From Amphiscolops sp. MND2022 (taxonomy: Eukaryota): a DNA stretch of 64,000 nucleotides. The stretch spans positions 13,392,001 to 13,456,000 of the forward strand of contig OZ076415.1 of the NCBI GenBank assembly GCA_964187785.1, read 5' to 3'. Positions 9,245 to 64,000 of the stretch are shown here, piece by piece. The position numbers were made by a program, and so were the translations under genes. The notes beneath the pieces were generated by a model. That model worked only from the letters and a program-made list of their open reading frames with translations, had not been told where the DNA came from and ran no database searches. How positions within the stretch are numbered: position 1 is the stretch's first letter; each line of letters starts with the position of its first letter.

Positions 9245-9466
9245 TAAGTGGAAGTTAGTCAACGTTTTGACTGACTTACGAAAAAAAGTATTTTTGGACT
9301 AACTTCCGCTTTTTTCTAATTACGTGTTTTGACTAACTTACACAATTTTCCATTACGCGCGTTGATTTTGCTACACCGTTGAAGCATAGACCGTCTTGAC
9401 TAACTTACGCTGAATGACCATTTTACCATTTTACTCAGATTACGCTGCTTGACTAAAGGCAGCTTA
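9245..9466. mobile_element. MITE-like insertion interrupting Bel/Pao pol
   Basis: Splits the WIKADP..RWHTFVSN reading; imperfect TIR TAAG....TTAGTCAA / TTGACTAA....CTTA; several internal GACTAACTTAC-like copies. Confidence 0.55.
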
Positions 9467-12400
9467 CCGGTACGTGTATCGTAATGCGGGTTGGATCCGC
9501 CTTGATCCATGAGAGTTCGATCGTTTAGTCTTAATACAACACTAAGATGTTTAGTGCGTGTTTTGATTTTGATAGTGCCACCGTGACCGCCGGTGCAAGT
9601 TTTGAACCAGTGTGTTTTGCTAGACGCTCGAGACGAGGGAGAGTTGGAGGTTGATTGGAGCCACCTTGCATTTGTAGGAAATACGGGCTGAAGAGACGAT
9701 GTCATCTTCGACTGACACCAGATAGACACAAGCACCAAATGCCTTTTCCGAGGAATCACTGAAGACTTGCAGGGACGCTTCATTGTATAAATGCGTTGGT
9801 AGCACCTTCCGGGGGATCTTGATTTGTGATAGCGAGCCCATCTAATTTTTCCAGTTTGTGTATGCCCGTGACACATCATGTGGAACTGCATCATTCCACT
9901 CGAGATCCAGATTCCAGCACGACTGAATGATGGCCTTTGCTACTACAGGAACTGGGGCTAAGAGGCCAATTGGATCGAAATGCTTTGAAACATCACTGAG
10001 TAGAGTTCGTTTGTAATGTTTGAAACATACTCACTACTACTTCTGTACAGAAATTGATCCCTCAAAAGATGCTACATCAGTCCCAGGGTTTTCATTTGAC
10101 TGGTTTTGTATTGTCTTTGTAAGCTTTGCCAGCTTCTTGAAGGCCTTTAGGAAGACGAGTAACCAGGTGGGGCTCGTTGCTGCTCCACTTGCGTAGTTGG
10201 AGACAATTCTTTTTGAGGGTTTCAACCAGATCGTCTTGAAGCACGCATACTTCCTCCAGTGTATCAGCTCCATTGATCTGATCGTCAACCCAGAAAACAT
10301 TGAGAATCACATTCATTACTGTGTTGGAACTGGGTTCGTGATGTTTACCGCGCTCTGGAAGTGCTCGGGTTGAGAGGTAGGATGAGCTGACTACACCGTA
10401 AGTCACACGAGTCATACGCAATTCTCGATCTCGTCCCTAAACACGTCACAGAATTAGCTGGAAGGTACAATCTGACTCGCCAAAAGCCACTTGTCGGTGC
10501 ATATTTGCTACATCTGTCGACAAAGCAAGTGGATAAAAGCGTGAGCGAATGAGGATGTCGAACACATCGTCTTGTACGCGGTGTCCAAGTAACAGGCTGT
10601 CGTTGAGGGAATAGAAGTTCGGAAAGTCGCTGCTGGTATCAAACACGACACGAAGCGTGGTCGTCGTACTATCGTTGAACTCACAAAGATGGGGTAAGTA
10701 GTAGCCCAAGCCTGAAGTCTGAGAAGCTTCTTCCAAGTCCTCCAAGTCTTCCATGTCCACCAAGTTTTTGATGAACCCACAACTTTGCTGCTTCACACCA
10801 CTGTGATGAACAGTGATACGGCCATCACCGTCAACATATGTCGTTGTGTCGTAATGCTCCACACATTGACGATTTTCTTTGGACATTGGCTTCACTCGAG
10901 GAATTTCTTCAACTTCCCAGAAACGAGCAAGGTCCAGTTCCACAGCAACTTGAAATGATTGACATATTGACATCGGTAGGCACGCACATGGGACAACTCT
11001 CCAGTAACCACCCAACCGAAGATGGACTTGCGATAGTGCAGTCAATGATCCTTCTTCCTTTCGTCCAGAAAGAGATCCTCGTACACTTCCGCGCACATCA
11101 ATTGAACGGGTTAATGGAAGATTTTGTTGGCTAGTGCTACACGTTTCATTGACTTTAATTGTTTCAGGTTAATCGATTGAGACGGTATATTACCTGCGAT
11201 TGTGTTTAGCACTAGTGCTGTAACTGGCAACTTTTGAGGACCCACTAGGAGACTGGCATACTCCTTTGCTGCTTGTTGCCGTCCACCGACCCAGAGATCT
11301 TCATGTCGACTGTTGAACGGGCAAGGTTGAGTTTGGATGCTGCATCCACTGTGATGAAGGATGTTTGCGATGTTTGCGTCCAGCAGGCTCGAAACATAAA
11401 TGTCTTTCCAGCTGTATCATCTATGCCAAACATTGCTGTTGACAGAAGCACTGACGGACCACTAAATGTTGCACCGCTTGTCACACCACCTTGCTGCTTG
11501 ACTGGGAAATCAAAGTGTAGGGATGTATGACGCCTGCCGTTGCAAGTGCGGCAGCTGAACTTCAATGGACACATCAGAAACGAAATGCCGCCACAGACAG
11601 TTCATGCACAGTTCGAGCTACCTTACCACTGCATTTCTGTCACGTGTGTCTGTCTGCTTGTAGCGATCACACTGGGAGATTGAATGGGACCCATTGCAAA
11701 TGTTCACCTGACAGCTTGCAGAGTGCTCAACAGTTGAAGAGTGGGCTTCTTGATGCACCTTCTTAGGAGTCGTCTCCGGAAGGAAACTCCAGGCTGGTTG
11801 CCACTGGATTCCAATGCGGGGCTTTTGTCTATCCATGATTGTAGTCAACTCTTTGAATGTTAACACATCTGTGCCGGAATGATCCAGTTCAAGTGATTCC
11901 TCGACTCAGCATCACGTTTCGCTAGTGATGCTGAGTACTCAGCAGCCAGTACGCTAGTATTACATCCCACTGATCGACAGACAACAACAATGCATCCAGT
12001 GCTTGCGCATTTTCATTCGTCGATTCCAACAAGTTGCGCAGCTCGGTACTTGATTCTTTCTTGATCGTTGGTAGGGCATGAATTGATGGTCGCTAGGTGC
12101 GCCTTCACGATTGAACGCTTGTTGTTGCAAGGACCTTTCGCTTTGCAACGACGCAGTTTGTATCAGTGACCAACAATAATGAAACTTCCCGAGCTGCATC
12201 GCACTTCGAGGACAATTTGAGGTATGATAGCTTCTCAACATTCTCCATGTCAACTTTGCTGCTAACAAATGTTGTGAATTGGTCCCAGAAGGAGACCCAC
12301 TGCGTGTATTCACCACTGAATGATGGAAGGGTTAGTTTGGGGAGTTTTGTGGTCAGACTGCCACTTGATGGAACCGCTGCGTCGCTTGGGCTTCGTGGTT

Positions 12401-12711
12401 GCAACTCCTCGATTTTGCTCTGACACCACATCACTGATCTTTCTGCTGCCATAAATACATCAGCAGCTTCCTCCACATCGGCTGCGAGTTCTTCGTTGTC
12501 TTCAAGGGGTTGTTGAAACTATGAATCCAACTCTGTCAGGAGCTTGAGATCATCAATCCAAAACTCATTGTGGCTTGGAAGTCCTCAATTGCCGGATTGC
12601 TGTTGCCCGTCTTGTGCAAACGCCGCGATGAGCCCCTCTCGATTGTTTCAACTGAGGCAGCTTCATTTCACCACCTTAGCCGTCTGAACTTCCTGAAGCA
12701 TCTGCTGTTGT

Positions 12712-16616: not shown

Positions 16617-16880
16617 TGTACCGACAAAAATGTTGACTTGAAAATTTTTGGTTGGTGCAGAAAATGATTATACCAATTAAAATTCCCAATGAAACAAATT
16701 GGTTAGTACAGAAGGACATATACTGACACAGTGTTGAACCACTTTTATGGGTCTTACAGAAGAAATGAGATGACGTACCGACTACGAGGTCGAATCACTT
16801 GTGTGATTAGTATTAATTAGTACAGAAGAAGAAATGTATACCAGTAGGAAATATCGAACAGGTTTTGGTTAGTACAGAAG
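16617..16880 (-). repeat. Tandem array (about 5 units) of TTCTGTACTAA-headed structured repeats, second copy
   Basis: Plus strand shows repeated TTAGTACAGAAG; one unit reads AATCAC-acaa-GTGATT-CGAC-ctcgta-GTCG-GTAC on the minus strand. Confidence 0.8.
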
Positions 16881-16914
16881 GTATTGGAAAATGAACGGGA
16901 GCGAAAAGATGGAT

Positions 16915-16925
16915 CGGTCGCACCA
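16915..16925 (-). promoter_or_regulatory. PBS-like site TGGTGCGACCG upstream of the leader array
   Basis: TGG start, about 40 bp upstream of the array; decayed counterpart TGATGCGATC near 43944 in the plus-strand copy; cognate tRNA not identified. Confidence 0.45.
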
Positions 16926-43342: not shown

Positions 43343-43888
43343 TTTAAGAGACGCTGCAGAACTGCAGTATTAGGGCTAAACAAAGTCACAACTGGATGGT
43401 AAGACTTTTATTTCTGTTGTGTGTAGAGTTAGAAATCGAAAGAGTTTTACAATGACGAAAACAAATTAGATACATTTACTTTCAGAGCAGCGCATGAACG
43501 TCGAGACAGTTAGACTAGACACGTGAAGGATAGTAAAGAACAAATCATTAGACAGGTATCGCATCCGACCAAGTTTCAAAAATGAGAATGTTTAGCGGGG
43601 AGTTGAGAGCAAACTACTTTTTGAGATTTGGGATTAAAACAGTTTGGGTTCTAAATTGATATCCCCATAATCTGATATTACCAATCATCTCCCACTACCC
43701 ATTGTATGAATGTCTAGACTTCTACTCGCTGCTAAGAATTTTAATGTATCTAATTTGTATTCAACATGTATTTTATCCTGGAAAGCACGTCTTGATTTGT
43801 AACTCTTTACAACGATGATAAAGTTTTCACCATAACGTTGTCATCCTCTAAGACCTAATACCGCAGCTCTCTTAGAGTCTTTAAAAGT
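43343..43888. repeat. Old foldback or inverted pair, arms about 150 bp
   Basis: 43343-43495 aligns to the reverse complement of 43726-43888 (shared CTGCRGTATTAGG, ACAAATTAGATACATT, AGCAGCG); a third copy lies near 37940-38050. Confidence 0.65.
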
Positions 43889-43987
43889 ACTACCTATCTC
43901 TGAAATAATCCAAATACCAACCCAAAAACAAAATAATTTAACTGATGCGATCAAACAAAATCCCTTCTCCTTCACTTTTCTACTACT

Positions 43988-44348
43988 TTCTGTACTAACC
44001 ATTTGGGTTCGATATTCTCCATATCGGTACTTAGTTCCTTTCTTCTGTATTAATCACAAACAGTGATTCGACATATTTATCGGTACAGATTCATCTCTTC
44101 TCTACTAACTATTCTTCAAAAAGTGGATCGACCTCGTAGTCGGCACAAATTTTCTTCTGTACTAATCACCAAATGTGATTCAGCAAATTCTACTGGTACA
44201 AAATCAGCATTTCTGTACTATTCAAGTTGGTTCAACTTTCTGTCGGTTCAATTCCAGTAGTAACCCTCTTGGATTCGACTTTCTTGTCGGTACACCCTTT
44301 TTTCTGTATTAACCAAAACACCTTTTGGTTCAACGTTTCTGTTGGTAC
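43988..44348 (+). repeat. Tandem array of 7 structured units (about 50-58 bp) with conserved stems and variable loops
   Basis: Unit pattern TTCT-GTAY-T-[stem 2]-[stem 3]-GTAC; see findings. Confidence 0.9.
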
Positions 44349-46289
44349 CATTAGTTTAGTCGTTTTTTTCTACAATTCCCATGCTTTCTTTAGATGATTC
44401 AGTTTGTGTTTTTATGAATTTCTTGTATAATTTCGGACTTTTTGAGATCGTTCTTCCCGTCGTCGACGAATTCATGATTGAATTTTCCCCGATAATTTCT
44501 CTGACACCACAATAAGTGTTTTTAACTGAAAACTTTGCTACTATCTATATTTCGACCCATTTATTTTTGCAATGCTTGTTTTTTCATGCTTGTCGTTGTA
44601 AAATAGTTTAATCTCTTTTCCATTAACCTTCTTCATACCCATAAAGTACTTTCTTACCCCCAAACTTCCCACAAAGACTTTTTTGTCATAACTCCACTTT
44701 ATTAGTTTTATTTTTAAAAATTCACTATCTTATTTTACCACACCTCAGTCCTATTTCCTTCTCACTCTCAAATTGTTCTTCTAGTCTACTCCCACAACTT
44801 TACGCTCCAATTTCTTTGAACTCTAACCCTTTAATGACTCTTTCACAACTCCTAATAATAGCTTATTAATTTTTCAAACTCCTCTCAATATTTCATTTCC
44901 ATCCTTTCCTCCTTTCTCACTGTCAAACTATACTTCCTAAACTCCACATATCTTTCCACCGACTTCCCACTGAACCTTCTTTTCACCTTGACATAGTTTT
45001 AGACCGCATCTGGTTTCTGTATTATCATCACCACCACTAATATTGACTGAACCAGCACCTCCTTTACTCCCCTTCCTTTTTTTTCGATGACACTCATCAT
45101 TGCCTTTTACGCGAGACTGATCAAGAATTAACCAAAACTCCTTGAACGTTTTATCTAAAACTCAACTGTTCCTCTTCCTTCTTTTTGAAACAAACCCTGA
45201 AGGTATATACACTACACCTCTTATACGTGAACATCACGACTCATGTTTTATTTTCATTGACACACATTCGTTAGTGAAAAATATTTCAATGAATATTTCA
45301 ATTCCTTTCACCTCTCCTTTGAATCCAACTGAAACCTTCCGTACAAACATTAATCTTTCTATTATTTGTATTCCCATAGCTCAGGTTTTCAACACTTTTC
45401 TCAAAACTTCTCCGAAAAAATTTTTTTTTCAACTCAACATGCTTTCACTCCTTCTCCTATACAGAGCTTCTTCAAAAAAACTCTTTTTAACCTCCCCAAT
45501 ATTGAACAACGCCGCACTATTGAGAATTTTGCCTTTTCTGGCTTCCTCCGACAATCGTTATCCGCAGTTTTTTAACCTCCTCGATTTTCCTGTTGATCTG
45601 TTCACCTACCTTCGTATGACAATCTTGGTATTGACAAAAATGTGAAACTTCCTCTTTCCGTCAGACCACAGGCAAAACATTTTCCTCAACTTCGTTCTTT
45701 TCACACTACCTCTGATGTATCTTTACGAACTATCCCTTCAACCTCGAATGTTTTGGTGAACACTCACCATACAAGCAACCCTTCTCCAACCTTTGATCCC
45801 CTCCGTCACCTTTTCCCAACAACCCATCACTACTCAACCTTCCAATTCTCATTCATCTCACCAATATAATATTCCTAACACTCCTCCTCCAACAAACCCT
45901 ATCACCCAACCATCTATCTCTCACTTCCATCAAACCTTTCCTCCAATTTCTCTTTTGTTCCATAATACTATCACTACTCAACCCAAATCTCATTCTTCCT
46001 AAACATGTTTTCCTCCAGCTCTTTCTTCTTCTAACCCTAAACGTCAATCTTCTTTTTCCAAATCTCAAAATCCTTCGTTATATCTGCCATCTTCCACTTT
46101 AAATCAGCTTCCTACATTTTGTGATCCTTACGCTCCTCCACCCTGGTTTTCATAACTATCCTCCATCTTCTTTTCATCCTCTGCTCTACCTCTTAACCCT
46201 CTCCAACCATCCATATTTACCTTTCTTTATTCCACCTCCTTCTCAATCGCCTCCATCTGTTTTCCAAATTAACTCTTAAATCCTTTCGC

Positions 46290-49200
46290 TGCTCTTTCTC
46301 CATCTCTCTTGCTCCGATCCCATTAAATATTTTGATGGCTTGGAACATATATCCTTCTGAAAAGTATTAGGCTCACCTCAGTGCACGTGTAGCATTTCAA
46401 CTTGGACCGCTACCCCTTGAACTTCATCAATATTTGACATGGCACTCATGACGTATGTCTCTCCTTTTTTGCTTACTCACAGGAATTGCCTCTAATTGGT
46501 ATTGTCGTCTCCCTCAAGCATACAAAAATGATTGGTCTTTTTTCCTCCAAAATTTCGAAAAAATTATAATCTCAAAAACATGCATACCATGCTCAGCTTG
46601 AAGCAGGTTACCTTGTTAAAAGGATAACAAAAATGTTGACAATGAATACCCATCCACGATAAATCTTAAATGACTCGTGGTCTCCCAGAAAAATTAAAAG
46701 ATTTTGCTAACAAACGTCAATCAAACATTTTTCGAGTTCACTTGAACACTCGATTCCCTTTCACTCCCTTGTCAAAATGGTTGATTCTGAAGATATTACC
46801 CATGGAAAATTTAAAACATAAGAAGTTTTTTTAAACCATGAATCAATCTGAAACTTTTAAACAGTACGACTCTGTTAAAGAAAACCTTCGGAATCTCCAC
46901 AACTATATGCCGTGAATTCTAATATTAAAATCTAAACCTCAATTTTCGGAAAAACGTTCTTTCCGCCATAAAGATAATCATTCCGTTTCCACTTGCTATC
47001 GTAGACTCAAATTACCTAAAGAATCTAAACCTCAACCAATGTCACCTACTACCATTTCTATCAACATTTCAAAACACCCTCAGATAAAAACAAAACTCCA
47101 ATCTCCTCGTTATCGTAGTCGACGTGAAAGTAATCAATTTAGAAAATGCGAATCTCCTTCCCATTCTTGATCAAACTTGCCTCACTATATTCTGATGAAT
47201 ACTCTCCTCATAATCATGCTTCAGACTATGATCTATCCGATCTCGTTATGATCAATATTTTAGAAAATCTCCTTCACGCACAATTTTTCTCTCTCGTCCA
47301 TAGTACAACTCTACATCTCCACGAAGCCCTTATAAATAATACCCTCGTTCCCCTCAGCGCTCCTCTTTTTTGATAACTAATCTTTTAGGCGTTATGAAGC
47401 ACCCTCTCGTTCACCCTCTAAAGCAAGTACTGATCGTTATCGACGTCGAGCACAGGCAATTTCTAAAACATACCCTAACTACTAACTACCAGTACAAACC
47501 CACTGTTAATCTAACTCAACAACCCACTTCATCAACTCATATTTCACCCTCTACGGAACCTAAATTTGAAATCAATATGTACCACCCAACCACCTCTCCT
47601 CATCTAACATCTCCTACTCTCCCAAAAAATCATGCTAACGCTATAACTCTTTACCTTCTAAATGAGAACTTTTGTTTCTGCTGGACAGCGTTGCTTCAGT
47701 TTGTGTTTTATGTCTACGCACCCTCACGGTATTAGCTGATCACTTTCTTGATTTTTCAAAATATAATCCCGCGAATAATGACTTTAAAACCTTAACAGTT
47801 GCCAACAAAGCAGAAGTTCCTATTTTATTTCCTGTAATTCTTACACTACAAACTTCTATTCAAGGAAATACTCGCAGTCTTGTCATTCCATTTGCGGTAG
47901 CAAATCTCAAACATAATTTTCTTGGTACCCTTTTCTTTGAAAAACATGTCAAAACTTTCAATACTGAACAAAACTTTTGCTGCTCTTTCTCCATCTCTCT
48001 CTCCGATCCCAATAAATATTTTGATGGCTTGGAACATATATCCTTCTGAAAAGTATTAAGCTCACCTCAGTGCACGTGTAGCATTTCAACTTGGACCGCT
48101 ACCTCTTGAACTTCATCAATATTTGGCATGGCACTCATGACGTATGTCTCTCTTTTTTTGCTCCCTCACAGGAACTGCCTCTAATTGGTATTATCGTCTC
48201 CCTCAAGCTTACAAAAATGATATGTTTTTTTTTCCTTCAAAGTTTCGAAAAAACTATAATCTCAAAAACATGCATACCATGCTCAGCTTGAAGCAGGTTA
48301 CCTTGTTGAAAAGGATAACAAAAATGTTGACAATGAATACCCATCCACCCTAAATCCTAAATGACTCGTGGTCTCCCAGAAAAATTAAAAGATTTTGCTA
48401 ACAAATGTCAATCAAACAATTTTCGAGTTCACTTGAACCCTCTATTCCCTTTCACTCCCTTGTCAATATGGTTGACTCTGAAGATAATACTCATAGAAAA
48501 TTCAAAACAAAAGAAATTTTTTTAAACCATGAATCACTCTGAAACTTTTGAACAGAGTACGCCTCTGTTGAAGAAGAACTTCGGAATCTCCACAACTATA
48601 TGCCGTAAATTCTAATATTAAATCTAAATCTCAATTTTCAGAAAACAATCTTCCCGCCATAAAGATAATCATTCCGTTTCCACTTGCTATCGTAGACTCA
48701 AAGTATTTAAAGCATCTAAACCTCAGTCAATGTCACCTACTACCATTTCTATCAACATTTCAAAACACCCTCAGATAAATACAAAGTTCAATCTCCTCGT
48801 TATCGTAGTCGACGTGAAAGTAATCAATTTAGAAAATGCGAATCTCTTTCCCATTCTTGATCAAACTTGCCTCACTATATTCTGATGAATACTCTCCTCA
48901 TAATTATGCTTCATACTATGATCTATCCGATCAATATTTTAGAAAATCTCCTTCGCGCACAATTTATCTCTCTCGTCCATAGTACAACTCTACAACTTCA
49001 CGTAGCCCTTTTAATTATTACAATCGTTCCCCTCAGCGCTCCTCTTTTTTTGATAACTAATGTTTTAGGCGTTATGAATCACACTCTCGTTCACTCTCTA
49101 AAGCAAGTACTGATCGTTATCGACGTCGAGCGCACGCAATTTCTAAAACATACTCTAACTACTAACTACCAGTACAAACCCGCTGTTAATCTAACTCAAC

Positions 49201-51895
49201 AACCCACTTCATCAACTCATATTTCACCCTCTACGGAACCTAAATTTGAAATCAATATGTACCACCCAACCACCTCTCCTCATCTAACATCTACTCTCCC
49301 GAAAAATCATGCTAACGCTGTAACTCTTTACCTTCTAAACGAGAACTTTTGATTCTGCTGGACAGCGTTGCTTCAGTTTGTGTTTTATGTCTACGCACCC
49401 TCACAGTATTAGCTGATCACTTTCTTGAATTTTCAAAATATAATCCCGCGAATAATGACTTTAAAACCTTAACAGTTGCCAACAAAGCAGAAGTTCCTAT
49501 TTTATTTCCTGTAATTCTTACACTACAAACTTCTATTCAAGGAAATACTCGCAGTCTTGTCATTCCATTTGCGGTAGCAAATCTCAAACATAATTTTCTT
49601 GGTACCCTTTTCTTTGAAAAACATGTCAAAACTTTCAATACTGAACAAAACTTTTGCTGCTCTTTCTCCATCTCTCTCTCCGATCCCAATAAATATTTTG
49701 ATGGCTTGGAACATATATCCTTCTGAAAAGTATTAAGCTCACCTCAGTGCACGTGTAGCATTTCAACTTGGACCGCTACCTCTTGAACTTCATCAATATT
49801 TGGCATGGCACTCATGACGTATGTCTCTCTTTTTTTGCTCCCTCACAGGAACTGCCTCTAATTGGTATTATCGTCTCCCTCAAGCTTACAAAAATGATAT
49901 GTTTTTTTTCCTTCAAAGTTTCGAAAAAACTATAATCTCAAAAACATGCATACCATGCTCAGCTTGAAGCAGGTTACCTTGTTGAAAAGGATAACAAAAA
50001 TGTTGACAATGAATACCCATCCACCCTAAATCCTAAATGACTCGTGGTCTCCCAGAAAAATTAAAAGATTTTGCTAACAAATGTCAATCAAACAATTTTC
50101 GAGTTCACTTGAACCCTCTATTCCCTTTCACTCCCTTGTCAATATGGTTGACTCTGAAGATAATACTCATAGAAAATTCAAAACAAAAGAAATTTTTTTA
50201 AACCATGAATCACTCTGAAACTTTTGAACAGAGTACGCCTCTGTTGAAGAAGAACTTCGGAATCTCCACAACTATATGCCGTAAATTCTAATATTAAATC
50301 TAAATCTCAATTTTCAGAAAACAATCTTCCCGCCATAAAGATAATCATTCCGTTTCCACTTGCTATCGTAGACTCAAAGTATTTAAAGCATCTAAACCTC
50401 AGTCAATGTCACCTACTACCATTTCTATCAACATTTCAAAACACCCTCAGATAAATACAAAGTTCAATCTCCTCGTTATCGTAGTCGACGTGAAAGTAAT
50501 CAATTTAGAAAATGCGAATCTCTTTCCCATTCTTGATCAAACTTGCCTCACTATATTCTGATGAATACTCTCCTCATAATTATGCTTCATACTATGATCT
50601 ATCCGATCAATATTTTAGAAAATCTCCTTCGCGCACAATTTATCTCTCTCGTCCATAGTACAACTCTACAACTTCACGTAGCCCTTTTAAATATTACAAT
50701 CGTTCCCCTCAGCGCTCCTCTTGTTTTGATAACTAATGTTTTAGGCGTTATGAATCACACTCTCGTTCACTCTCTAAAGCAAGTACTGATCGTTATCGAC
50801 GTCGAGCGCACGCAATTTCTAAAACATACTCTAACTACTAACTACCAGTACAAACCCGCTGTTAATCTAACTCAACAACCCACTTCATCAACTCATATTT
50901 CACCCTCTACGGAACCTAAATTTGAAATCAATATGTACCACCCAACCACCTCTCCTCATCTAACATCTACTCTCCCGAAAAATCATGCTAACGCTGTAAC
51001 TCTTTACCTTCTAAACGAGAACTTTTGATTCTGCTGGACAGCGTTGCTTCAGTTTGTGTTTTATGTCTACGCACCCTCACAGTATTAGCTGATCACTTTC
51101 TTGAATTTTCAAAATATAATCCCGCGAATAATGACTTTAAAACCTTAACAGTTGCCAACAAAGCAGAAGTTCCTATTTTATTTCCTGTAAATCTTACACT
51201 ACAAACTTCTATTCAAGGAAATACTCGCAGTCTTGTCATTCCATTTGCGGTAGCAAATCTCAAACATAATTTTCTTGGTACCCTTTTCTTTGAAAAACAT
51301 GTCAAAACTTTCAATACTGAACAAAACTTTTGCTGCTCTTTCTCCATCTCTCTCTCCGATCCCATTAAATATTTTGATGGCTTGGAACATATATCCTTCT
51401 GAAAAGTATTAAGCTCACCTCAGTGCACGCGTAGCATTTCATCTTGGACCGCTACCTCTTGAACTTCATCAATATTTGGCATGGCACTCATGACGTATGT
51501 CTCTCTGTTTTTGCTCCCTCACAGGAACTGCCTCTAATTGGTATTATCGTCTCCCTCAAGCTTACAAAAATGATATGTCTTTTTTCCTTCAAAGTTTCGA
51601 AAAAACTATAATCTCAAAAACATGCATACCATGCTCAGCTTGAAGCAGGTTACCTTGTTGAAAAGGATAACAAAAATGTTGACAATGAATACCCATCCAC
51701 CATAAATCTTAAATGACTCGTGGTCTCCCAGAAAAATTAAAAGATTTTGCTAACAAACGTCAATCAAACACTTTTCGAGTTCACTTGAACCCTCTATTCC
51801 CTTTCACTCCCTTGTCAATATGGTTGACTCTGAAGATATTACTCATGGAAAATTTAAAACAAAAGACGTTTTTTTAAACCATGAATCACTTTGAA
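46290..51895 (+). repeat. Tandem duplication array, about 1.68-kb unit, three full copies plus a partial fourth
   Basis: Same ORFs at 47672, 49349 and 51025 (offsets 1677, 1676); copies 2 and 3 are nearly identical. Confidence 0.95.
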
Positions 51896-54800
51896 AAACA
51901 TGTCAAAACTCTCAATACTGAACAAAAGTCACTTACATTTAAATAACCAATCTCACATCAAATCTCTTCCCTTTACCGCTTTTAAAGAAAGAGAATAGTA
52001 CTCATTTTTACACTAGTTTTTTTACATTTATACAAAAAAATGTCAAAACAAAATCAATTTTATACCTAATGCTGCTTAAGTCTTTCAATTTTCAATTCAA
52101 CCTACTCTTCCCCTAACTTTCAGAATATCTTTTTCCTTCTACAGCTCATCCATTTTTCAGTACTCGCTTTAAATCTACATTTAACTTTCTCCAAGTCTAC
52201 GCAAATTTTGAAGCTGAAACCAACAGTTGCTCTAATATAATTCAGAACCTTTCTCATCACTCCGGCAAACCTCTCCGAAGAATACATTGGCTAATTTGAA
52301 GTTTCTGCTCCCAATATTAAACTCTCCCTTGTAGAGTTAATGATGTCAACTCTCTCGTTCACATTAAATTTCATTCATATTATCCAGATCTCTGAGAACC
52401 CAAACCTCCTGTTCGTCGTTCCTTCCTCCGAAAACAATATTGAAGTTAATAAATACCAATTCTTCCAAAATTTGAACTGTCCTCTTCCTTCTTTACCAAA
52501 TTCACCAAAAACTCAACAGTTCCTCAAAAAGTTCAAATTTCAAAACTCTGACGTAACTGATGATGAATATTCGAAACTCTGCTCCATTCTGGTTATATAT
52601 CGACATTGCTACGCTACGCATCGCAATGATGTTGGTAAAAAGGCTGCACTTTTCAGAATCGGCCTCAAACCTATTGCTTAACTCCAAACTCAAAGACCCA
52701 CCAAAGTACCCATACACTTTTGACAAAAACCTAAAAAACTACTCAAGGAAGGAGAAAACCTCAATGTTAATAAACAAAACGGTTCTACTTCTTGAGACAA
52801 ATCCATCTACATAGAAGATAATGTTAAAGTTGTTCTCGATGTCAGGCTTTTAAACACTTACACCGATTAATCTTTCGATTCTTTTACCAATTGACGTTTA
52901 GCTCCTCAACTTGAACGCGCTAACAAAAAAATTAAATCTGCAATTGTTATCATATACGTCTATGCACAAGTCCCTCAGACGAAGAAACCATTACACTCAC
53001 CAGTTTCTTATCGCGAGTCTATGCTTTTATTCCAGGTTTTTACGGTCTTAAAGCACTTCAAATTCTTTTCATCATTCAAATGTATTCTTTTTTGCACAAA
53101 CGCTTTGATCAAGGCTTTGCAATTGACAATATCCTCCTCCTTGCTCATACTAAAACTCTTATAATAGACCAAATTGAACAGTTACATTAAATTTGTAGCT
53201 CTAATAACCCTAAAATTGTTCCCGGGGAAACTATTTTATAGTTTTCTCACTGTGAAGTTTCTTGGACTTGAATTTGGCCACAATACTATCAAATCCATCT
53301 CCACTATCGTTGACGGCATACATAAATCAAAAACTCCCACATCTAAAACCGACTCCTTGCGTTTTATTGGATCAAATGCTTTCAACTCCAAACTCTTTTA
53401 CAATACGTTTCACTCAAACTCCACATACGTTTACACTCTTCTCCTTGACAATGGTTCTTTTGAATGGACTCCTGAATTAGATTAACTCTTAAATTTTATT
53501 AAAACATCTCTCTCAAAAGATGCTGAACTTGTACCAACTAGTGTCACTCAACCATTCTATAATACCGTTGACGCTTCTTTTTTTAGTTTAGGTGCCATCA
53601 TTTTGCAACCTTACACCGATAACACAATGCGAATTATATCGTATTTCAACAACCTAACAAAAATAACTTTCTACCTATGATCGAGAACCCTGTGCTAGAA
53701 CTTTTGCCTTTTGCAAAATGAATTTATCACTATTGGCACCAAATCCCCAATAACTTTTTTGAACGATCACAATCGTATTCTATTTCGCTTCACTCGAAGA
53801 GGAAATCTCACACCAAGTCAATATAAAGCTCAAATGTTGTTAACAGAAGTTTCGGATCTTCAAACTATTCAAACTGCTGGTACTAATCTAACTGCTGCTG
53901 ATATGCTCAGTCGACACTTCGTATCCAATACTGTGACATACATTTTTTTACATACACCCCTTGATTCTCTTTCGTTGCAATCCGTAACCTCCTTTTTAAA
54001 GAAATTGAAAAACAAATTCCAACAAAGTTAAGTTAAAAGATTGCTCCGCCAAAACCCTCTTTTAATTGAAACTGATTTGTATGAAGATGATGACCCTGTT
54101 ACCAAGAAGGTTCATGAGCAAAACCCACAAACAATTTCAACCGTCTCATATTATTCAAACTCTCCTCTGTGAAATCCATTACCAGAATTTCAGGGACTCT
54201 CATCTTTCTCAAAATAGTTTTACCAATATGACAAATTCTTTATCTCCAAACTCTGATGAATCTTTTCCTTTCTGCGCCATAACACTAACTCCTATTAAAC
54301 CTCTACTCAATTTTTGCCATTTTTTGACCAATACTTGTTTGCTCATTGTAAGCTTCTGAAAACATATTTCTTCCACCTTTTAACTTTTTAACCATACCCA
54401 TTTTTCTCCAAGCTCCAACAAATGATCATGTGTTCTCCACTGTTTAAACTTGGCTAAAAAACAAAGATCTTTTACCTTAACTCCATTTAGTAAAGCTAAC
54501 TCTTTTTTACATACATACTACAAACTATTTCAACAATTGCATATAGAACCATTTTTCCATATTGTCCAACATTATACACAATTCTGGAAAATTTGAAGCA
54601 GTCTTTCTTAAAACTCAACCCTCTATTATCCCACTCCGCATTTGTTTACCAATCGAACTCTTCTATGCTGCTTCTGACAATTCACATGGCCACTCCGGTG
54701 AAAATCTCTGCATCAAACTTTTCAATCAATTTGTTTTATATTCCTTACTTACCCCTAGGTTTTCGATTTTCATTTATAACAGTATTGAATGTCAAACAAA

Positions 54801-55859
54801 CAAACAATTCTATTTTTAACCTAACAAAATCTCACCTGCTCTATCATTTCATGAAAACGCCAAACATTTCAAATATCGAATCTCAATAGCCACAAAAGGT
54901 CCTATTTCCCTTTCTTCCAAAATTAACGTCAATATTTTTGTAATCAATGACGCTTTTTGCAATTTTGTTGTAACTAACCCTGCATCTCATAATTCTTCCA
55001 AATAGGCTATCAAACACTATTAAATCATGGATCACTAAATTTGGCCTCCCTCAATATCTCGAAGTACTGAATATAATTATCAAGTTATGACACATTAACC
55101 ATTCTCCACGTACTCCTCTCTTCTTTCTCTTTATCGTGTTGTTTTCCTTACACACCCTCGTATTCCATTAAACTTATATCTTAATTTCTTACGTGATTCT
55201 TCTAAAAGTTGAATCGTCACACATGGTAATTCATTTGCACCTCATACACATTATAATGACCAGGGTCTCATCGTTTTTCCCGCTCACTCCTCGATAAACG
55301 TATTTCTTCTTGGATTTTATCAGCTGAACATTCAATGTTAGAAATACACTCTAATGTTCATCACTACAAAAATAAACTAATTTCACAAAACTACACATTT
55401 GAAACATTTCATCAAAAACCACTCCCTCTTGATATTTTTTGTTATTCACACCATTATTGAACCTATCAAATTGTCTGATGAACTCAAACCCCTCCATCGT
55501 CGTCGTTACAAAATTATTCAACATCTCTTAGATGTTACACGTGAACCCATGGCTCAAGATGGCTCGCTCTACTTTTCAAACCCGTCGAAGCCACATTTTA
55601 CCAAACAACACTAAAGAACCCGTTATTTTCCTAAATCTCCGTTACTAACCTTCTACTCCCTTACTTCCTAATAATCCTGATGCTGACTCTTATTAAAGTA
55701 ATCTCTCTCATTCATCTCAAAACGATTCAGAAATACTAATTGAACCTGTTATCCCAAATACTTCTATCAAACTAATTGCATTACACCGAACCAAATTACT
55801 CCCCTCTCCTACTTCACAACACCTTCCTAGTTCTACTAATGTAATGTTACTACGGTTTT

Positions 55860-58800
55860 GAGTTAGAAGGAAACCAGCTAGATGTGGGTTTTTAACAGAC
55901 CTTGCGAAAATGGTTAGGGGTTGAGTTTTGAGTTAAAGTTTATGTTTCGTTTCATGAAAGTTCTTATTGGTGTGATAGTGGTACTAGATTTGGAGTCAAG
56001 AGGTAGATACGAATCGGAGTCATTTCCAGAACCGGAATTGGAGAAATGTTTAAGTGCCCTTAACATTGTTTTTGCTACAGTTAAAGAAACTATAACCAAA
56101 AGCAGGAAAAAGTGTAATTTTTTCAAAATGTTTTAAAGTTTATTCACCTATATAAACTGATAAAAAATGGAAGGTAATTTGAAAGAAAAAAGCAGTAGAG
56201 AAAGATATTCCACATTGAGTTAAAACATAGAAAGGGCATCCAGAGAGCTTGATGAAAGCATCAGTAAACCATTAAGGTGTTAAAAAAGGAGTAATGTTTC
56301 AAAGGTTGTCATGAAGACCAATTCTAAGAGATTCCTATCAACCATATACTCGGACGGTTGTGTACTCATAAATTCATAACTGATAGGATTACCGAGGAGC
56401 TGTAATGTATTGTCAGTGTGTTTGGCAAAAAGAATACGATTCCAAAAATTGTTGAGTTGTTTTTGTAGGTAAATACTTGTGTCTTGTGTAGTAAAAGGGT
56501 TTGTGCTGATAGTAGTTTGATTTTGAGTGGATTCAAAAAGTTGAGTGCATATTGAAATCTTTTTTAAAAGTTATAAAGAGGACAAGGTATCGAATTGTTT
56601 AGAAAGTTGTGTTTGTTACAGAACAATTTACTTTTGGGCAAGATTCCAAAACGGGGAAGGTGAGTGTGAGATTCAGTGTCACGACGAGTTTTTTCAGGAG
56701 GTAAAGTTGAATTTTTATGGTTGAAAAACTGTTCGGCGTCAAGCCAATATCGATTTTTTTCTAGACAAGCGTCAAATAAAGAAGTGAACTCGAAATATGA
56801 TACATGAGCGAAAGCCGAAAACCAAACAACGGCAAAGGGTTTTAACATTGATTGTTTACAGAAGTCATCACCATAGAGGCAAAGTAAATTGTGTCCATTA
56901 TAAATTTTCTCGTCATATGCAATTTCGATTTCCTAACAAATGAAGACCAACTGCCTGTTTCAATTATATATCCAACAGACAGCATTTTTGTTCAGGGTTG
57001 AGTTTAGGACAAGTTGAGAGCTTGTAATCCAGGCAGGAGCACCATAATAAATGGTGTTGCGTTCAGTTATGCGAATAAAAGGTTGTTTAGTTTCAAGAAA
57101 GCGTTAACTTTGAATATGGTCAAAGAAGGTGAAGTAGTTACCATAATCAAAGTCTTTAAGTTTAAGGTTATCCGAACCGTTTAAAACGTTTAGCTATTTA
57201 GCGAAAGAAGACCTTCGTAAAAGCAAGGGCGCGCTCTAAGGAAGACGGGTCGTGAGAGGAAGGTTGAACACAAGTTCTAAATAGTCGAAGATTTTGTTGT
57301 TTGCAACTATCACAATGAGAGACAAGGAGGTCCGACTAATGAGGGTTGTTCGGTTCAACTAGATAGGTGTGAGAAACAGCAAAATAGGTTGGTAGGAAAA
57401 AGTGATGGAGGAAAAGAAATCAGAAAAGGCTAAAACTTTGATTTGTAATGGTTAAGTCTAGAGGTGATGATAATAATGGGTCTCGACTGAAGACACATCA
57501 ATTCATGTCTGGAATAGTAAAACAATTAGTGTGTGAATTTTGAATTGAGGATGGAAACTGATAGAAAGTGGCGATTCATCGAATGTATATAGTGGAATTG
57601 GGCGTAGGAATAAGGAATGAAAAGTTCCAATATGAGAGGGTTGTTTTGATTTTCATCTGTGACTTCATGGTTAAAATCTTGAAGAAAATCAGCAAAACGT
57701 GGGTAAGGAAGAATATCTGTAAGGCGGAAGGGGTGGCGTATCAGAAATTCAAACTATCAGAAATACAAACTGGGCTAAAGTTAAAATATTTTGGTAATGA
57801 GGAATAGTTTCTATCGAAGTGTTAGAGTCAAAAAGTTTGGATGTTTTATCCGGATTTTGGTCGGAGGGTTTCGATAAATTATTCTGGTAAGATTCAGTGT
57901 CAAGGTTGCTAAAAAGAGATGGTGTTGATGAGTTGACGAATATAGAGGAAAGTAAGAGGATCTTTGGAAAAATATGGATCCGATGGGTGTGAAAGAAAGA
58001 GCCACCTTGTGTCATAAGTTCATAAATGACTCCCTAGAGATATTTAGGTATCCTATAGGGGCCAAGGAGTAAAATGTTTGAGTTTAGTTGAAAATTTAAC
58101 AAATTTAAAATTAGTATCGATAACGAACGTGTCAATAGGGAGTTGTTTTAAACAAGCCGTTTCAAATGTAGATAATGTGTAGGTTTAATTTGTTGGTTAT
58201 ATGGCATTGAACAGTAGAATATTTTTCTAACTTTGCATGTTCAGCTGATAATAGCCATGAAGAGATGTGTTTACCAATGAAAGGAAAAGATTGAGACTTG
58301 ATTACTGTAGTGTGTATGAGGAGGAACTGGATCACGAATTGAGACGATACAAGCTTTGGAGGAACTGAGTAAAACGTTAGGGGAAAAGGTTAGCGGATTA
58401 CGAAGAAAACATTTTGATTTGGAAGAAGTTTGAGTTGCGAAAGAGCAGCAGTGTTACGTGCATAAGCATACATCTGAGTTTGCAATGACCAATTGGAAGG
58501 AAGGTTTTGCAAAAAGAGGCGTAGATGAGTTCAAAATAACGGGTTTGAACTTCACTAAACTGTTTGTCCAAAAATACAATGGAGTACGTCTCTGATTGAT
58601 TTTAAAGGATGTCTATGGATCCAATGATTGACGAGTGTTTGGATAGCGTATTTTAAGAAAATTGAGGTGTTGGGTTTGTCACAAAAAATGACGAGCAGCG
58701 TCGATGACTACAAAAATAAAAGAATCAATTTGTGAAGTAGGTGAAATAGGTCCTTTTGTGTCAATTGAGATCGTGTAACTAAAAAAAGTCGCGTTTTTTA

Positions 58801-61800
58801 AAAATGGTAATGAAGGAGAAGTTTTTTAAGGAAGTGTTTATTTGTTTGACACTCGCGACTATCTTGAGCAAAGATAGGGAACCATGATGGTTAGTGTGGA
58901 ATGTAATAAAATTGGTTGAAGGTTTGAAATAGAAATTCATTCACCCTATTGACCATGTGAATACGTTTTATCAAAAGCAGCGTACAAGGTTCTGAATGGT
59001 AAACGAATGCCAGTTTAAATATTAGATAGTTGAGTTTTGGTGAAAAGTTCTTCAAGAATACGGGAGTTCAGGGTGTAGTATTGGGTTAAGTGTGAAATTG
59101 GGTCAGTGTATCAATGATGGAAATGTTTTGTAATATGTGTATAGAAAGGAGTTAGCTTAAATAATTGTGATTAGGGCAAAAATTTTTTGTTTTGTTTCAA
59201 TCAAATTTAAACTGTAGAAAGAATAAGGTCATCTTTTTGAGCTCGTCAAAGAATCGGTTTAGCTAAGAATGTAACTCTGGGAAGTACAAAAATTTCAAGA
59301 ATTTTACAATGAACAAAAAAAAGGCCAAAAATGGTAAAAATTGAGTGGAGGTGGATTTAAAAGGAGTTTGAGTAAAAGCAATTGTTTTAAAAAATGGTAT
59401 CACATCTAGATAAATGAGATTTTGTTAAATTTGTTATTGTTATTTGAGAAAGACATTTTTGATTTAGTCAAGATAAATATGGTGTTGAATTTCATAATCG
59501 TGGTGATTTGTAACACGTGGAGTTTGAGTTTGGGTAAAGCGTTGTTCTGAAATTCTTTTAGGAACCTCTTTTGTTTTCTTTTTAGCATCGTCATCTTCAA
59601 TGAGATGGAATTGAGTGTAAGTAACAGTGTTACTTTTATCGTGGATTCGAAGTGAGAATTGATCATCACTATAGTTAAAGAGAACTAGCTGGGAATCATT
59701 TTTCTGAGTAGGTAAAATTTTTCCATGTTTTACTAAGTTGTGAACTTGTTTTGAAAGATTGTTTGAAAATCCAATATGTGGTGGTAAGGTTTTAATCGTG
59801 ATGACTTAGCATATTGGTAAAATTTAATTTCGTACCTAAAGAAAGGGTAATTTGAAGGTTTGAGAACTTTTTTAAAAACAATTTAGATCTATTTGATCCG
59901 ATGTAGGATTTCTTTTGCCTGTGAAAGGACATAACGTGGGGTCATGATCAGTAGAAATGTTCATTGTAAATTTTGATCCAATGAATGTTAAGATAATCAT
60001 GTGAGGTGAGTGCAAAAGATATAGCAACCGTAGGCAGAACATTTCTGTTTTCGAGTTGTTAAAGTACGAGAGTTAAGTGGAGAGAGACAACTAAGTATTA
60101 GCATATCAGTATAAAAAACTGGCAGAAAGATTTTTGCACCTAAACCAAGTAGGGAAGGAACAACAGTGATGTGAAAGGGGTGAGAGGTAAGGAATACAAG
60201 GTTTAGAATGGTTTGTGAGAGAAGTTTCAATTTCTTTAGGGAGTTTTTCTAATTCAGTAGTCCATTCGAAAAAAATGTCATCCTGGAGAAGAGAATAAAA
60301 TGGGTTAGGTGAAATGTGAAGTTTGTTTATAAATCTGGAGTAGAAGTTCATTGAACGAAAGAATCGCAACAGTTCCGTTTTAGAAGTAGGAGCTTTTAAC
60401 TTATATCCACCATCAAATTTGGAAGAGACAGGTTCAATGGTTCCATTTTAAATTCCGTATCTACGAAATTCACCAGTGAGAACTATGAAATCTTTTTTCC
60501 GCAGCATTTTTGAGGTTATTAGAACTAGAGCCTTAGTAAATGTGTTCAATGAGCTCAAACATCTGAGATTTAGTGTGGGCTAAGAGGAAGATATCTTCAA
60601 AAAAACGAGTGCAAAACCTTAATCAATACGTGTTTGAAACATCGAATACATTTGTATTGTGAAAAAATTTTGAAGCCCTTTGAGACCATAAAAACCTCGG
60701 ATGAAAGCATAAAGTTTATCTCCGGACGAGACACTTTTGAGAGCAATAATTTCTCCATTTAGAGGCGCATGTACATATGCATACATAAAAGCAAGGGCAA
60801 ATTTGAATTTTTGTTGGCTCTGGCTAATTGTGGAGCAAGAGGTTCAATACGCCATGATTCAAAAGCTTGGTCAGTGTTAGAGATTATATGTCTAGCACCA
60901 AGGACGACTTTAATTGAGCCTCTCTCAGTCAGGGATGTTAAAGAATGGCTTCAAAAAAGTATTTCCCTAACACGAAATATCTGATGAAGCGGAGGTACTT
61001 TGTCTTTCAATTCTGTATTGTTCTATCTCATCTAGAAGGTTTGTAAATTTTTCTCTATAGTGGAAAGAAACTTTAGTAGGTCCTTCAGTTTGGAGTTTAG
61101 CAATAGGAATGAGGCGTATTCTAAAAGATGTAGCAATGTTATCTGCATCATTACGATGCGTGGCCTAGCAATGTAAAACGTTTAGCTATTTAGCGAAAGA
61201 AGACCTTCGTAATAGCAAGGGCGCGCTCTAAGGAAGACGGGTCTTGAGCGGAAGGTTGAACACAGGTTAAACTCTAAATAGTCGAAGATTTTGTTGTTTG
61301 CAACAATCACAATGAGAGACAAGGAGGTCCGACTAATGAGGATTGTTAGGTTCAACTAGATAGGTGTGAGAAACAGTAAAATGGGTTGGTAGGAAAAAGT
61401 GAGGGAGGAAAAGAAATCAGAAAAGGCTAAAACTTTGATTTGTAATGGTTAAGTCTAGAGGTGATGATAATAATGGGTCTCGGCTGAAGACACATCAATT
61501 CATGTCTGGAGTAGTAAAACAATTAGTGTGTGAATTTTGAATGAGGATGGAAACTGATAGAAAGTTGCGATTCATCGAATGTATATAGTGGAATTGGGCG
61601 TAGGAAAAAGGAATGAAACGTTCCAATATGAGAGAGTTGTGTTTGATTTTCATCTGTGACTTCATGGTTAAAATCTTGAAGAAAATCAGCAAAACGTGGG
61701 TAAGGAAGAAGATCGATCTGTAAAGCGGAAGGGGTGGCGTATCAGAAATTCAAACTATCAGAAATACAAACTGGGCTAAAATTAAAACATTTTGGTAATG

Positions 61801-64000
61801 AGGAATAGTTTCTATCGAAGTGTTAGAGTCAAAAAGTTTGGATGTTTTATCCGGATTTTGGTCGGAGGAGTTCGATAAATTACTCTGGTAAGATTCAGTA
61901 TCAAGGTTGCTAAAAAGAGATGGTGTTGATGAGTTGACGAATATAGAGGAAAGTAAGGGGATCTTTGGAAAAATATGGATCCGATGGGTGTGAAAGAAAG
62001 AGCCACCTTGTGTCATAAGTTCTTAAATGACTCCCGAGAGATATTTAGGTATCCTATAGGGGCCAAGGAGTAAAACGTTTGAGTTTAGTTGAAAATTTAA
62101 CAAATTTAAAATTGGTATCGATAACAAACGTGTCAATAGGGAGTTGTTTTAAACAAGCAGTTTCAAATGTAGATTATGTGTAGGTTTAATTTGTTGGTTA
62201 TATGGCGTTGAACAGTAGAATATTTTTCTAACTTTGCATGTTCAGCTGATATTAGCCATGAAGAGATGTGTTTACCAATGAGAGGAAAGGATTGAGACTT
62301 GATTACTGTAGTGTGTATGAGGAGGAACTGGATCACGAAATGAGACGATACAAGCTTTGGAGGAACTGAGTAAAACGTTAGGGGAAAAGGTTAGCGGATT
62401 ACGAAGAAAACAATTTGGTTTGGAAGAAGTTTGAGTTGCGAAAGAGCAGCAGCGTTACGTGCATAAGCATACATCTGAGTTTGCAATGACCAATTGGAAG
62501 GAAGGTTTTGCAAAAAGAGGCGTAGATGAGTTCAAAATAACGGGTTTGAACTTTACTAAACTGTTTGTCCAAAAATACAATGGAGTACGTCTCTGATTGA
62601 TTTTAAAGGATGTCTATGGATCCAATGATTGACGAGTGTTTGGATAGCGTATTTTAAAAAAAATTGAGGTGTTGGGTTTGTCACAAAAAATGACTAGCAG
62701 CGTCGATGACTACAAAAATAAAAGAATCAATTTGTGAAGTAAGTGAAATAGGTACTTTTGTGTCAATTGAGATCGTGTAACTAAAACAAGTCGCGTTTTT
62801 TTAAAAATGGTAATGAAGGAGAAGTTTTTTAAGGAAGTGTTTATTTGTTTGACACTCGCGACTATCTTGAGCAAAGATAGGGAACCATGATGGTTAGTGT
62901 GGAATGTAATAAATTTGGTTGAAGGTTTGAAATAGAAATTCATTCACCCTATTGACCATGTGAATACGTTTTATCAAAAGCAGCGTAAAAGGTTCTGAAT
63001 GGTAAACAAATGCCAGTTTAAATATTAGATAGTTGAGTTTTGGTGAAAAGTTTTTCAAGAATACGGGAGTTCAGGGTGTAGTATTGGGTTAAGTGTGAAA
63101 TTGGGTCAGTGTATCAATGATGGAAATGTTTTGTAATGTGTGTATAGAAAGGAGTTAGCTTAAATAATTGTGATAAGGGCAAAAATTTTTTGTTTTGTTT
63201 CAATCAAATTTAAACTGTAGAAAGAATAAGGTCATCTTTTTGAGCTCGTCAAAGAATCGGTTTAGCTAAGAATGTAACTCTGGGAAGTACAAAAATTTCA
63301 AGGGTTTTACAATGAACAAAAAAAGGGCCAAAAATGGTAAAAATTGAGTGGAGGTGGCTTTAAAAGGAGTTTGAGTAAAAGCAATTGTTTTAAAAAATGG
63401 TATCACGTCTAGATAAATGAGATTTTGTTAAGTTTGATATTGTTATTTGAGAAAGACCTTTTTGATTTAGTCATGATAGTTTTCGTGTTGAATTTCATAA
63501 TCGTGGTGATTTGTAACACGCGGAGTTTGAGTTTGGGTAAAGCGTTGTTCTGAAATTCTTTTAGGAACCTCTTTTGTTTTCTTTTGAGCATCGTCACCTT
63601 CAACGAGAAGGAATTGAGTGTAAGTAACATTGTAACTTTTATCGTGGATTCGAAGTGAGAATTGATCATCACTATAGTTAATGAGAACTAGCTGGGAAAC
63701 ATTTTTCTGAGTAGGTAAAACTTTTCCATGTTTTACCAAGTTGTGAACTTGTTTTGAAAAATTGTTTGAAAATCCAATATGTGGTGGTAAGGTTTTAATC
63801 GTGATGACTGAGCATATTGGTAAAATTTAATTTCGTACCTAAAGAAAGGATAATTTGAAGGTTTGAGAATTTTTTTTAAAAACAATTTAGATCTATTTGA
63901 TTCGATGTAGGATTTCTTTTGCGTGTGAAAGGACATAACGTGGGGTCATGATCAGTAGAAGTGTTCATTGTAAATTTTGATCCAATCAATGATAAGATGA
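55860..64000 (-). mobile_element. Decayed AT-rich Gypsy element (RT/RNase H/integrase plus a 3' extra ORF), internally duplicated; runs off the window end
   Basis: MRFFRSMNFYSRFINKLH..WTTELE (RT/RNase H tether), integrase remnants 57750-59000, homology to 52300-55800. Confidence 0.85.
57182..64000 (-). repeat. Tandem duplication, unit about 4.0 kb (57182-61173 and 61174 onward)
   Basis: TAAAACGTTTAGCTATTTAGCGAAAG at 57182 and 61174; matching ORFs offset by 4001-4003. Confidence 0.95.

Follow-up and report, generated by a model that had tools for sequence, protein, structure and literature searches.

How LTR retrotransposons select their own RNA is described as poorly known, although Gag of Ty1 is reported to bind a structured 5' region (PMC6844567). 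In HIV-1, the core encapsidation signal is described as a tandem three-way junction, with the tightest nucleocapsid (NC) sites beside it (PMC7395439). The array of small RNA repeats analysed here, found in the leader of a Ty3/gypsy element of Amphiscolops sp. MND2022, resembles HIV-1 in that three-way junctions are predicted in the 5' leader near the site of primer binding (PBS), in elements whose Gag has a CCHC knuckle. HIV-1, however, has two nested, unique junctions and a kissing-loop dimer site (PMC7395439), whereas the arrays described here comprise 2–8 near-identical, free-standing junctions of 40 nt, with variable loops and number. The pseudoknot and PAL of Ty1, an LTR retrotransposon, offer another likeness in that its structured 5' region has been proposed to be a Gag site, but these signals are single-copy and palindrome-based (PMC6844567), while here the junctions are repeated and lack conserved palindromic loops. 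Ty3/gypsy elements with a class III (HSV/gB-type) envelope (PMC13524379) and the Tor elements of Oikopleura (PMC4402516) share with the elements studied here the gag-pol-env order, the RT-RNase H-integrase order, a class III-like fusion protein (PF24664) and a tRNA PBS. Those studied here differ in their length of about 18.9 kb, an ORF1 of about 2640 aa, an Arg/Ser (RS)-rich Gag and extra ORFs. The survey that covered Ty3/gypsy elements carrying an envelope left out those with LTRs more than 14 kb apart, and its main text holds no occurrence of 'UTR' or 'stem-loop' and no discussion of leaders (PMC13524379); likewise, no such array is described for the Tor elements in the part of the article covered (PMC4402516). 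Structured RNA on an unspliced genome, combined with accessory ORFs, is described for Rev/RRE, the CTE and CERV of Cer1 (PMC10309623). In contrast to these, the array here is 5'-proximal and made of modular repeats, and its partner is putative. Drosophila gypsy and ZAM reportedly carry tandem repeats behind the PBS in their 5' UTR, which are said to be DNA sites for proteins (enhancer or insulator, in the gypsy leader). Tandem repeats behind the PBS of an envelope-bearing gypsy element are thus a shared trait, but the repeats described here covary as base pairs.

The window, that is, the whole stretch of 64,000 nt that was analysed, contains seven units at positions 43991–44349, all on the plus strand and hereafter called a type I array. 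The preliminary description had listed seven units with particular stem variants, some of them decayed, about 40 bp after a PBS-like site; all are present in the sequence, and the measured distance from the decayed PBS (43943–43953, plus strand, two mismatches to the family PBS) is 37 nt. Unit 1 (43991–44030) is well kept, with AACC/GGTT in hairpin stem P2 and CGATAT/ATATCG in P3, and scores 38.5 bits with a model built from related units. Unit 2 (44046–44087; AATCAC/GTGATT; 49.8 bits) has one mismatch inside stem 3 and a 7-bp closing stem with one U-G pair; this long stem, which had been pointed out earlier, exists but is incidental, the usual closing stem having 5 bp. Unit 3 (44101–44147; CGAC/GTCG) is decayed and matches the model partially (13.4 bits). 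Unit 4 (44158–44200; AATCAC/GTGATT and CAG/CTG) reaches 55.8 bits, as a member of the model's training set. Unit 5 (44214–44250; 13.1 bits) is decayed, unit 6 (44256–44294; CGAC/GTCG; 28 bits) has a decayed closing stem, and unit 7 (44305–44349; 37 bits) carries AACCAAAA/TTTTGGTT and CAAC/GTTG. Overall, five of the seven units are recovered at E<0.001 and the remaining two weakly, by a model whose training set included one of the seven. A second, decayed array with three detected units lies at 16667–16924 on the minus strand, behind the PBS of another related element.

The carrier of the window array is a broken Ty3/gypsy copy with a decayed tRNA-Met primer site. Its decayed 5' LTR (43657–43940, left edge approximate) is 70–81% similar to the stretch preceding the PBS in related copies. 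The array is followed by the remainder of a long pyrimidine-rich leader (44350–45177), a broken gag-protease region (45178–52082) with a tandemly repeated capsid, knuckle-RS and protease block, and broken RT, RNase H and integrase sequences (52817–55293; RT_RNaseH_2, E 3e-6), all on the plus strand. The copy ends near 55.8 kb, with neither env nor a 3' LTR on the plus strand of the window. The capsid-to-protease block (46283–51896) is present in ~3.4 tandem copies with a period of about 1677 bp, which are 94–100% alike although the rest of the carrier element is old. The copy is truncated by a related element in the opposite orientation (55831–64000, minus strand), whose env, integrase and RT pieces are partly duplicated. 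Also on the minus strand, a Ty3/gypsy element occupies 17250–37876. It has no type I array, carries a dUTPase placed between protease and RT, and contains internal duplications as well as several LTRs of 410 bp at 98%. A further minus-strand element at about 8000–12500, which we take from motifs in its translation to be BEL/Pao-like, is nested in the second array-bearing element; together with the class III env genes, it suggests that the host is an animal and probably an invertebrate.

The window array has a fold z-score of −3.5, and none of 100 shuffles was equally stable. In a motif-free scan, four flush three-way junctions were counted in the window array, where 1000 dinucleotide shuffles gave at most three, and five in a young array, where shuffles gave at most two. 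The default ViennaRNA fold, however, does not yield separate junctions but pairs closing arms with the opening arm of the next unit. The closing stem P1 is near-palindromic, and a closing arm could therefore pair with the next unit instead; this between-unit register is mostly preferred by the Turner 2004 and Langdon energies, and separate junctions are preferred by the Turner 1999 and Andronescu energies. Since the default fold gives no separate junctions, their register rests on comparative evidence. Among 20 units with a GTAG closing arm, all from one subfamily, the unit's own opening arm is CTAC in 12, while that of the next unit is GTAC in 19 of 19 cases and CTAC in none. Two inherited closing-stem variants favour junctions formed within units. 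As to the strand, energy does not decide, because the antisense strand has a predicted fold about 10 kcal/mol lower when energy alone is considered. In young units, 15 G-U cells against 5 A-C cells, mostly derived from one inherited site, weakly favour plus-strand RNA.

In the 1.07-Gb genome, 41 additional places match the window stretch at 70–80% (among 40 scored of 526 candidates). A tight pattern of the unit gave 474 exact genome matches and a variant pattern 108, each with none in the control; a loose pattern was useless for counting (1873 matches versus 3568 in the control). The preliminary description had made young, intact copies a point to check, and relatives with LTR pairs 98–100% identical were found to carry clean arrays. 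In seven of the eight elements traced to their right end, the second LTR is 98.4–100% identical (two pairs at 100%, one pair partial), and 4-bp target duplications are visible in five elements. These young elements span ~18.8–18.9 kb, have LTRs of 310–348 bp ending in ...TTTA, and are ordered as LTR, PBS, ~1.08-kb leader, gag-pol, env and three further ORFs. The gag-pol frame (ORF1) is single and about 2640 codons long, the env ORF matches PF24664 (E 2e-27), and the three further ORFs had no Pfam match. LTRs, PBS, gag, the RT-RNase H-integrase order and env place them among envelope-bearing Ty3/gypsy elements. At its 3' end, a host elongator tRNA-Met(CAT) is matched by the family PBS over 11–12 nt, 11 of which are also found in a tRNA-Val, but in sister families the match to the Met tRNA extends over 17 nt. 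The first match to the tRNA pattern in the genome turned out not to be a tRNA. In a young copy, gag begins 1085 nt past the PBS and the leader is 9% G.

Several distinct envelope-bearing families are present in the genome, with env frames of 712–952 aa, many of them with long open frames. The homologues found for RT were all unnamed. Behind env, one copy has two conserved ORFs (L065:6856-8382 and 9005-9928) that had no Pfam match. For ORF4, 55 unnamed homologues were found, with no match in the Atlas and none in the PDB at E≤0.001; its predicted folds are of low confidence (pLDDT 51 and 50), and a Tudor-like barrel matched at E 2.7 is a mere hint.

A type I unit consists of the 5-bp closing stem P1, an unpaired U, hairpin P2, flush hairpin P3 and the closing arm, in this order. 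P2 and P3 each have 4–6 bp, and the units are joined by linkers of about 11 nt that are 77% pyrimidine. The junction core is nearly fixed, with four pairs at the junction and the unpaired U kept while outer pairs vary; closing pairs C-G, A-U and C-G surround the single unpaired U. Spacing between the fixed words varies freely among units. Helix variants changed on both sides and seen in at least three arrays comprise CTAC/GTAG and GCAC/GTGC in P1, AACC/GGTT, AGTC/GACT, AACT/AGTT and AACCG/CGGTT in P2, and CAGC/GCTG, CGAT/ATCG, CAAC/GTTG and CAGT/ACTG in P3, and Watson-Crick pairing is intact in 10 out of 10. G-U intermediates are common, with AATC/GGTT inherited in 47 arrays, and the mismatched variant AACC/GATT is present in 14.

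In a covariation ranking based on sequence-anchored columns and 252 rows, 8 of the 16 predicted pairs were among the top 18 of 528 column pairs, the other top-ranked pairs being unit-type correlations. In 50 units, hand-picked in favour of well-formed ones, 95% of cells were paired, compared with 19–38% when the arms were slid, and 10 of 15 pairs had changed on both sides. In a model-fitted alignment of 56 distinct units from loci selected by LTR end and PBS, 95% of cells were again paired, with 5 of 15 pairs changed on both sides. A tree-aware count over 351 units found 21 same-branch double changes at predicted pairs where 5.8 were expected (3.6-fold), against 294 where 140 were expected at other pairs (2.1-fold). 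Larger alignments thus do show the covariation anticipated in the preliminary description, but because the tree-aware count is weak, the covariation rests on roughly ten events and not on hundreds. We consider it very probable that the structure is real and selected, and that it acts in plus-strand RNA. A reiterated structured-RNA module in a retroelement leader, as had been proposed, is supported.

Parsing by sequence anchors recovered 490 units in 113 arrays of 2–8 units each, with a PBS-like site within 330 nt upstream in 95 of the 113. In all three full elements scanned, model matches occurred behind the PBS only, the LTRs and coding parts being free of them. The model searches covered the fetched loci, through which other families and host genes were sampled. 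When loci were chosen by LTR end and PBS alone, units were present in 17 of 20; two of the others are single deletions and one is decayed. Copy number drifts between near-identical elements. When the young subfamilies A and B are compared, matched units agree in their stems at 80 of 80 positions and in their loops at 23 of 44, against identities of 75% in the LTR, 71–75% in the flanking leader and 68% at third positions of RT; the RT comparison of subfamily C, being out of frame, was left out, and the pattern overlooked one unit of L062. Across all 15 pairs of six elements, stems agree at 77–80 of 80 positions, a constancy to which the pattern used for finding units itself contributes.

PBS-like sites for one tRNA-Met number at least 2832 genome-wide (control 168). 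In a sample of 30 + 30 of the 2832, the abundant sister family was found to have an array of another kind at the corresponding position behind the PBS. This type II array was found in 21 leaders (L222, L224, L302 and 18 more), with 107 units between +150 and +450 from the PBS. Its units are bulged hairpins that combine GUU with a stem of 5 bp, an inner hairpin and a 3' bulge of 6 nt, and their outer stems covary as well (CTGAC/GTCAG, CCAAC/GTTGG, GCAAC/GTTGC). In sequence, these stems look like P3 of type I plus one extra pair, following the same GUU. One type II unit has a GACG tetraloop, which resembles the kissing loops of MLV. A type III array, located between +110 and +240 from the PBS, was found in five of five leaders examined (L243, L282, L284–L286) of another envelope-bearing family. 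It consists of three long A/U hairpins whose stems are compensated and whose AAAGC loop is invariant. Other envelope-bearing families had no repeats in the first 700 nt of the leader, and replicate in the same genome without such an array.

In the RT tree, the carriers of type I arrays, including the window copy, form one clade (17 rows, 100/100) that is sister to type II, with type III and the array-less families outside; 4 of the 30 locus rows lack RT, and the long branches of L328 and L330 are unreliable. Type I and type II are 73% identical in RT and 53% in env. In both of these array-bearing sister clades, Gag has a single CCHC knuckle followed by a long, SR-protein-like Arg/Ser-rich tract. 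RS/SR dipeptides after the knuckle number 17–28 in five uninterrupted type I and II copies and 0–6 in five others, a link between arrays and RS-rich Gag that is not an independent correlation because it involves a single clade. The tract lies at about residues 740–900 of the frame at L064:4046-10000, and is also present in ORF1 of L302.

With its junction fixed while loops and copy number are free, the array has the look of a multivalent protein site. An element-encoded reader is favoured by the position behind the PBS, where the RNA has to be of full length, and by the replacement of the shape in the sister clade, and Gag would be the simplest candidate. We tentatively suggest that the array may act as a multivalent Gag-docking or packaging tag. 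Under this proposal, repeats in the genome RNA, predicted to fold as a row of small three-way junctions, would be read at the junction by a protein, possibly the element's own Gag through its CCHC knuckle and Arg/Ser-rich tract. Repetition would provide avidity, and full-length RNA would thereby be selected for packaging, with the lineage-specific shape perhaps keeping co-resident families from packaging each other's RNA. Since two related lineages have other repeats at the same place, the arrays may be lineage-specific docking tags by which each element's own protein would pick out the matching genome RNA. It is more doubtful whether three-way junctions, bulged hairpins descended from the same stem, and AAAGC-loop hairpins would all be modular, expandable lineage barcodes, each read by the knuckle-RS region of its own Gag.

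By position and shape, the type I array can be likened to a retroviral packaging signal: its place is in the 5' leader, on the 3' side of the PBS, its secondary structure is conserved, with a weak tree-aware test, and the Gag has a zinc knuckle. It is not classed as one, because it has neither a conserved dimer loop nor a conserved unpaired G. Retroviral NC sites and dimer-initiation loops present unpaired G and a conserved palindromic loop, respectively, and the loops of type I units showed no conserved palindrome and no conserved unpaired G, several having no G at all. Dimerisation by kissing loops is thus not supported, because the loops are not conserved. Among the functions offered in the preliminary description, Gag binding or packaging would fit best, at a level of confidence that stays somewhat short of even.

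Other roles can be weighed against the same observations. The word UACUAAY, known from branch points and STAR-protein sites, spans the junction in 361 of 425 units, which would suit a role of the array in exporting the unspliced 18-kb RNA or in keeping it from being spliced, with the product of an extra ORF (Rev/CERV-like) or a host export factor (CTE-like) as its reader. Yet the word sits inside helices that are predicted, is disrupted but compensated in 10 units with an inherited variant, and is no feature of types II and III; known export elements are also usually internal or 3'. Even considering that type I and type II share extra ORFs after env (ORF4 37% identical, no Pfam match), that Cer1 depends on the accessory CERV for export and that Rev multimerises on structured RNA (PMC10309623), we regard export as unlikely. 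Decidedly unlikely, in our view, is control of gag-pol translation by a ribosome shunt, part of an IRES or a Gag-dependent switch from translation to packaging: the ~1.08-kb leader with nine upstream ATGs, the pyrimidine-rich linkers and a family that has no array and starts gag 16 nt past the PBS all speak for it, but 600–800 nt separate the end of the array from the start of gag, and the L335 family has a 1.0-kb leader without repeats. The IRES-like element mentioned in the preliminary description is weakened by this same distance, put at about 750 nt, since the array does not abut the gag start. A fixed core, free loops and variable copy number would suit any multivalent protein site, including one for a host protein acting in RNA transport or stability (a localisation signal, a nuclease block or small-RNA evasion); such a role seems quite improbable, given that a partner encoded by the element would account more easily for the change of shape in the sister clade and that no conserved pseudoknot pairing was found in the loops.

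It is very unlikely that the array acts as DNA, in the manner of enhancer or insulator repeats, or that it arose neutrally as units were duplicated and templates were switched at hairpins. Fixed words in every unit and the drift of copy number between near-identical elements would agree with this, and template switching can perfect short hairpins. However, spacing between the fixed words is free, and pairing is preserved through sequence changes, the long-range closing stem included. In addition, 47 arrays share an inherited U-G pair, and stems resist the 25–30% divergence around them. Tandem three-way junctions are typical of hammerheads in retroelements, and a ribozyme or processing signal had been among the earlier suggestions. 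The hammerhead core motifs are CUGANGA...GAAA, and in three type I arrays CUGANGA is missing from both strands and GAAA from the sense strand. Together with a junction that has a single unpaired base, the lack of an Rfam match and the consideration that cleavage here would sever the genome RNA from its primer site, this makes a self-cleaving ribozyme or processing signal extremely improbable.

The preliminary description recognised no RNA family in the array, in agreement with Rfam 15, where neither the window region nor young leaders of types I, II and III had a match at the gathering score, the best being far below it. The tight unit pattern had no matches in collections of viral and metagenome contigs, which hold little animal DNA. 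A looser pattern gave 50 metagenome matches, 16 of them fully paired, all single units and none in an array; these were treated as chance because the pattern forces much of the pairing. No title or abstract describing such arrays was found in a literature search whose coverage mostly leaves out subscription journals. For probing and binding assays, specificity controls are at hand in the 40-nt unit, whose core is fixed and whose variants are naturally compensated, and in the two alternative arrays of related lineages. If each element's own Gag reads these tags, they would reveal how cross-packaging is avoided among dozens of families sharing a genome, and would put small orthogonal RNA tags on offer. 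Should the barcode reading be true, they would represent natural orthogonal RNA-protein pairs, comparable to the MS2 arrays built by engineering, and Ty3/gypsy elements would have their first modular packaging code; were export or translation the function instead, the array would still be an RNA motif without an Rfam match.

Packaging would have been indicated by a pol-less lineage that had been amplified with its array retained, and none was found among the loci covered. L337 (G000:C1:4173801-4183800, minus strand), a candidate for an array-less non-autonomous family, was rejected as such, being a single copy without array and without pol whose relatives keep the type II array in 16 of 16 cases. 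In this copy, an extended PBS covers 17 nt of the tRNA, after which the sequence jumps ~550 nt downstream, deleting the array, in what looks like a mis-annealed strand transfer.
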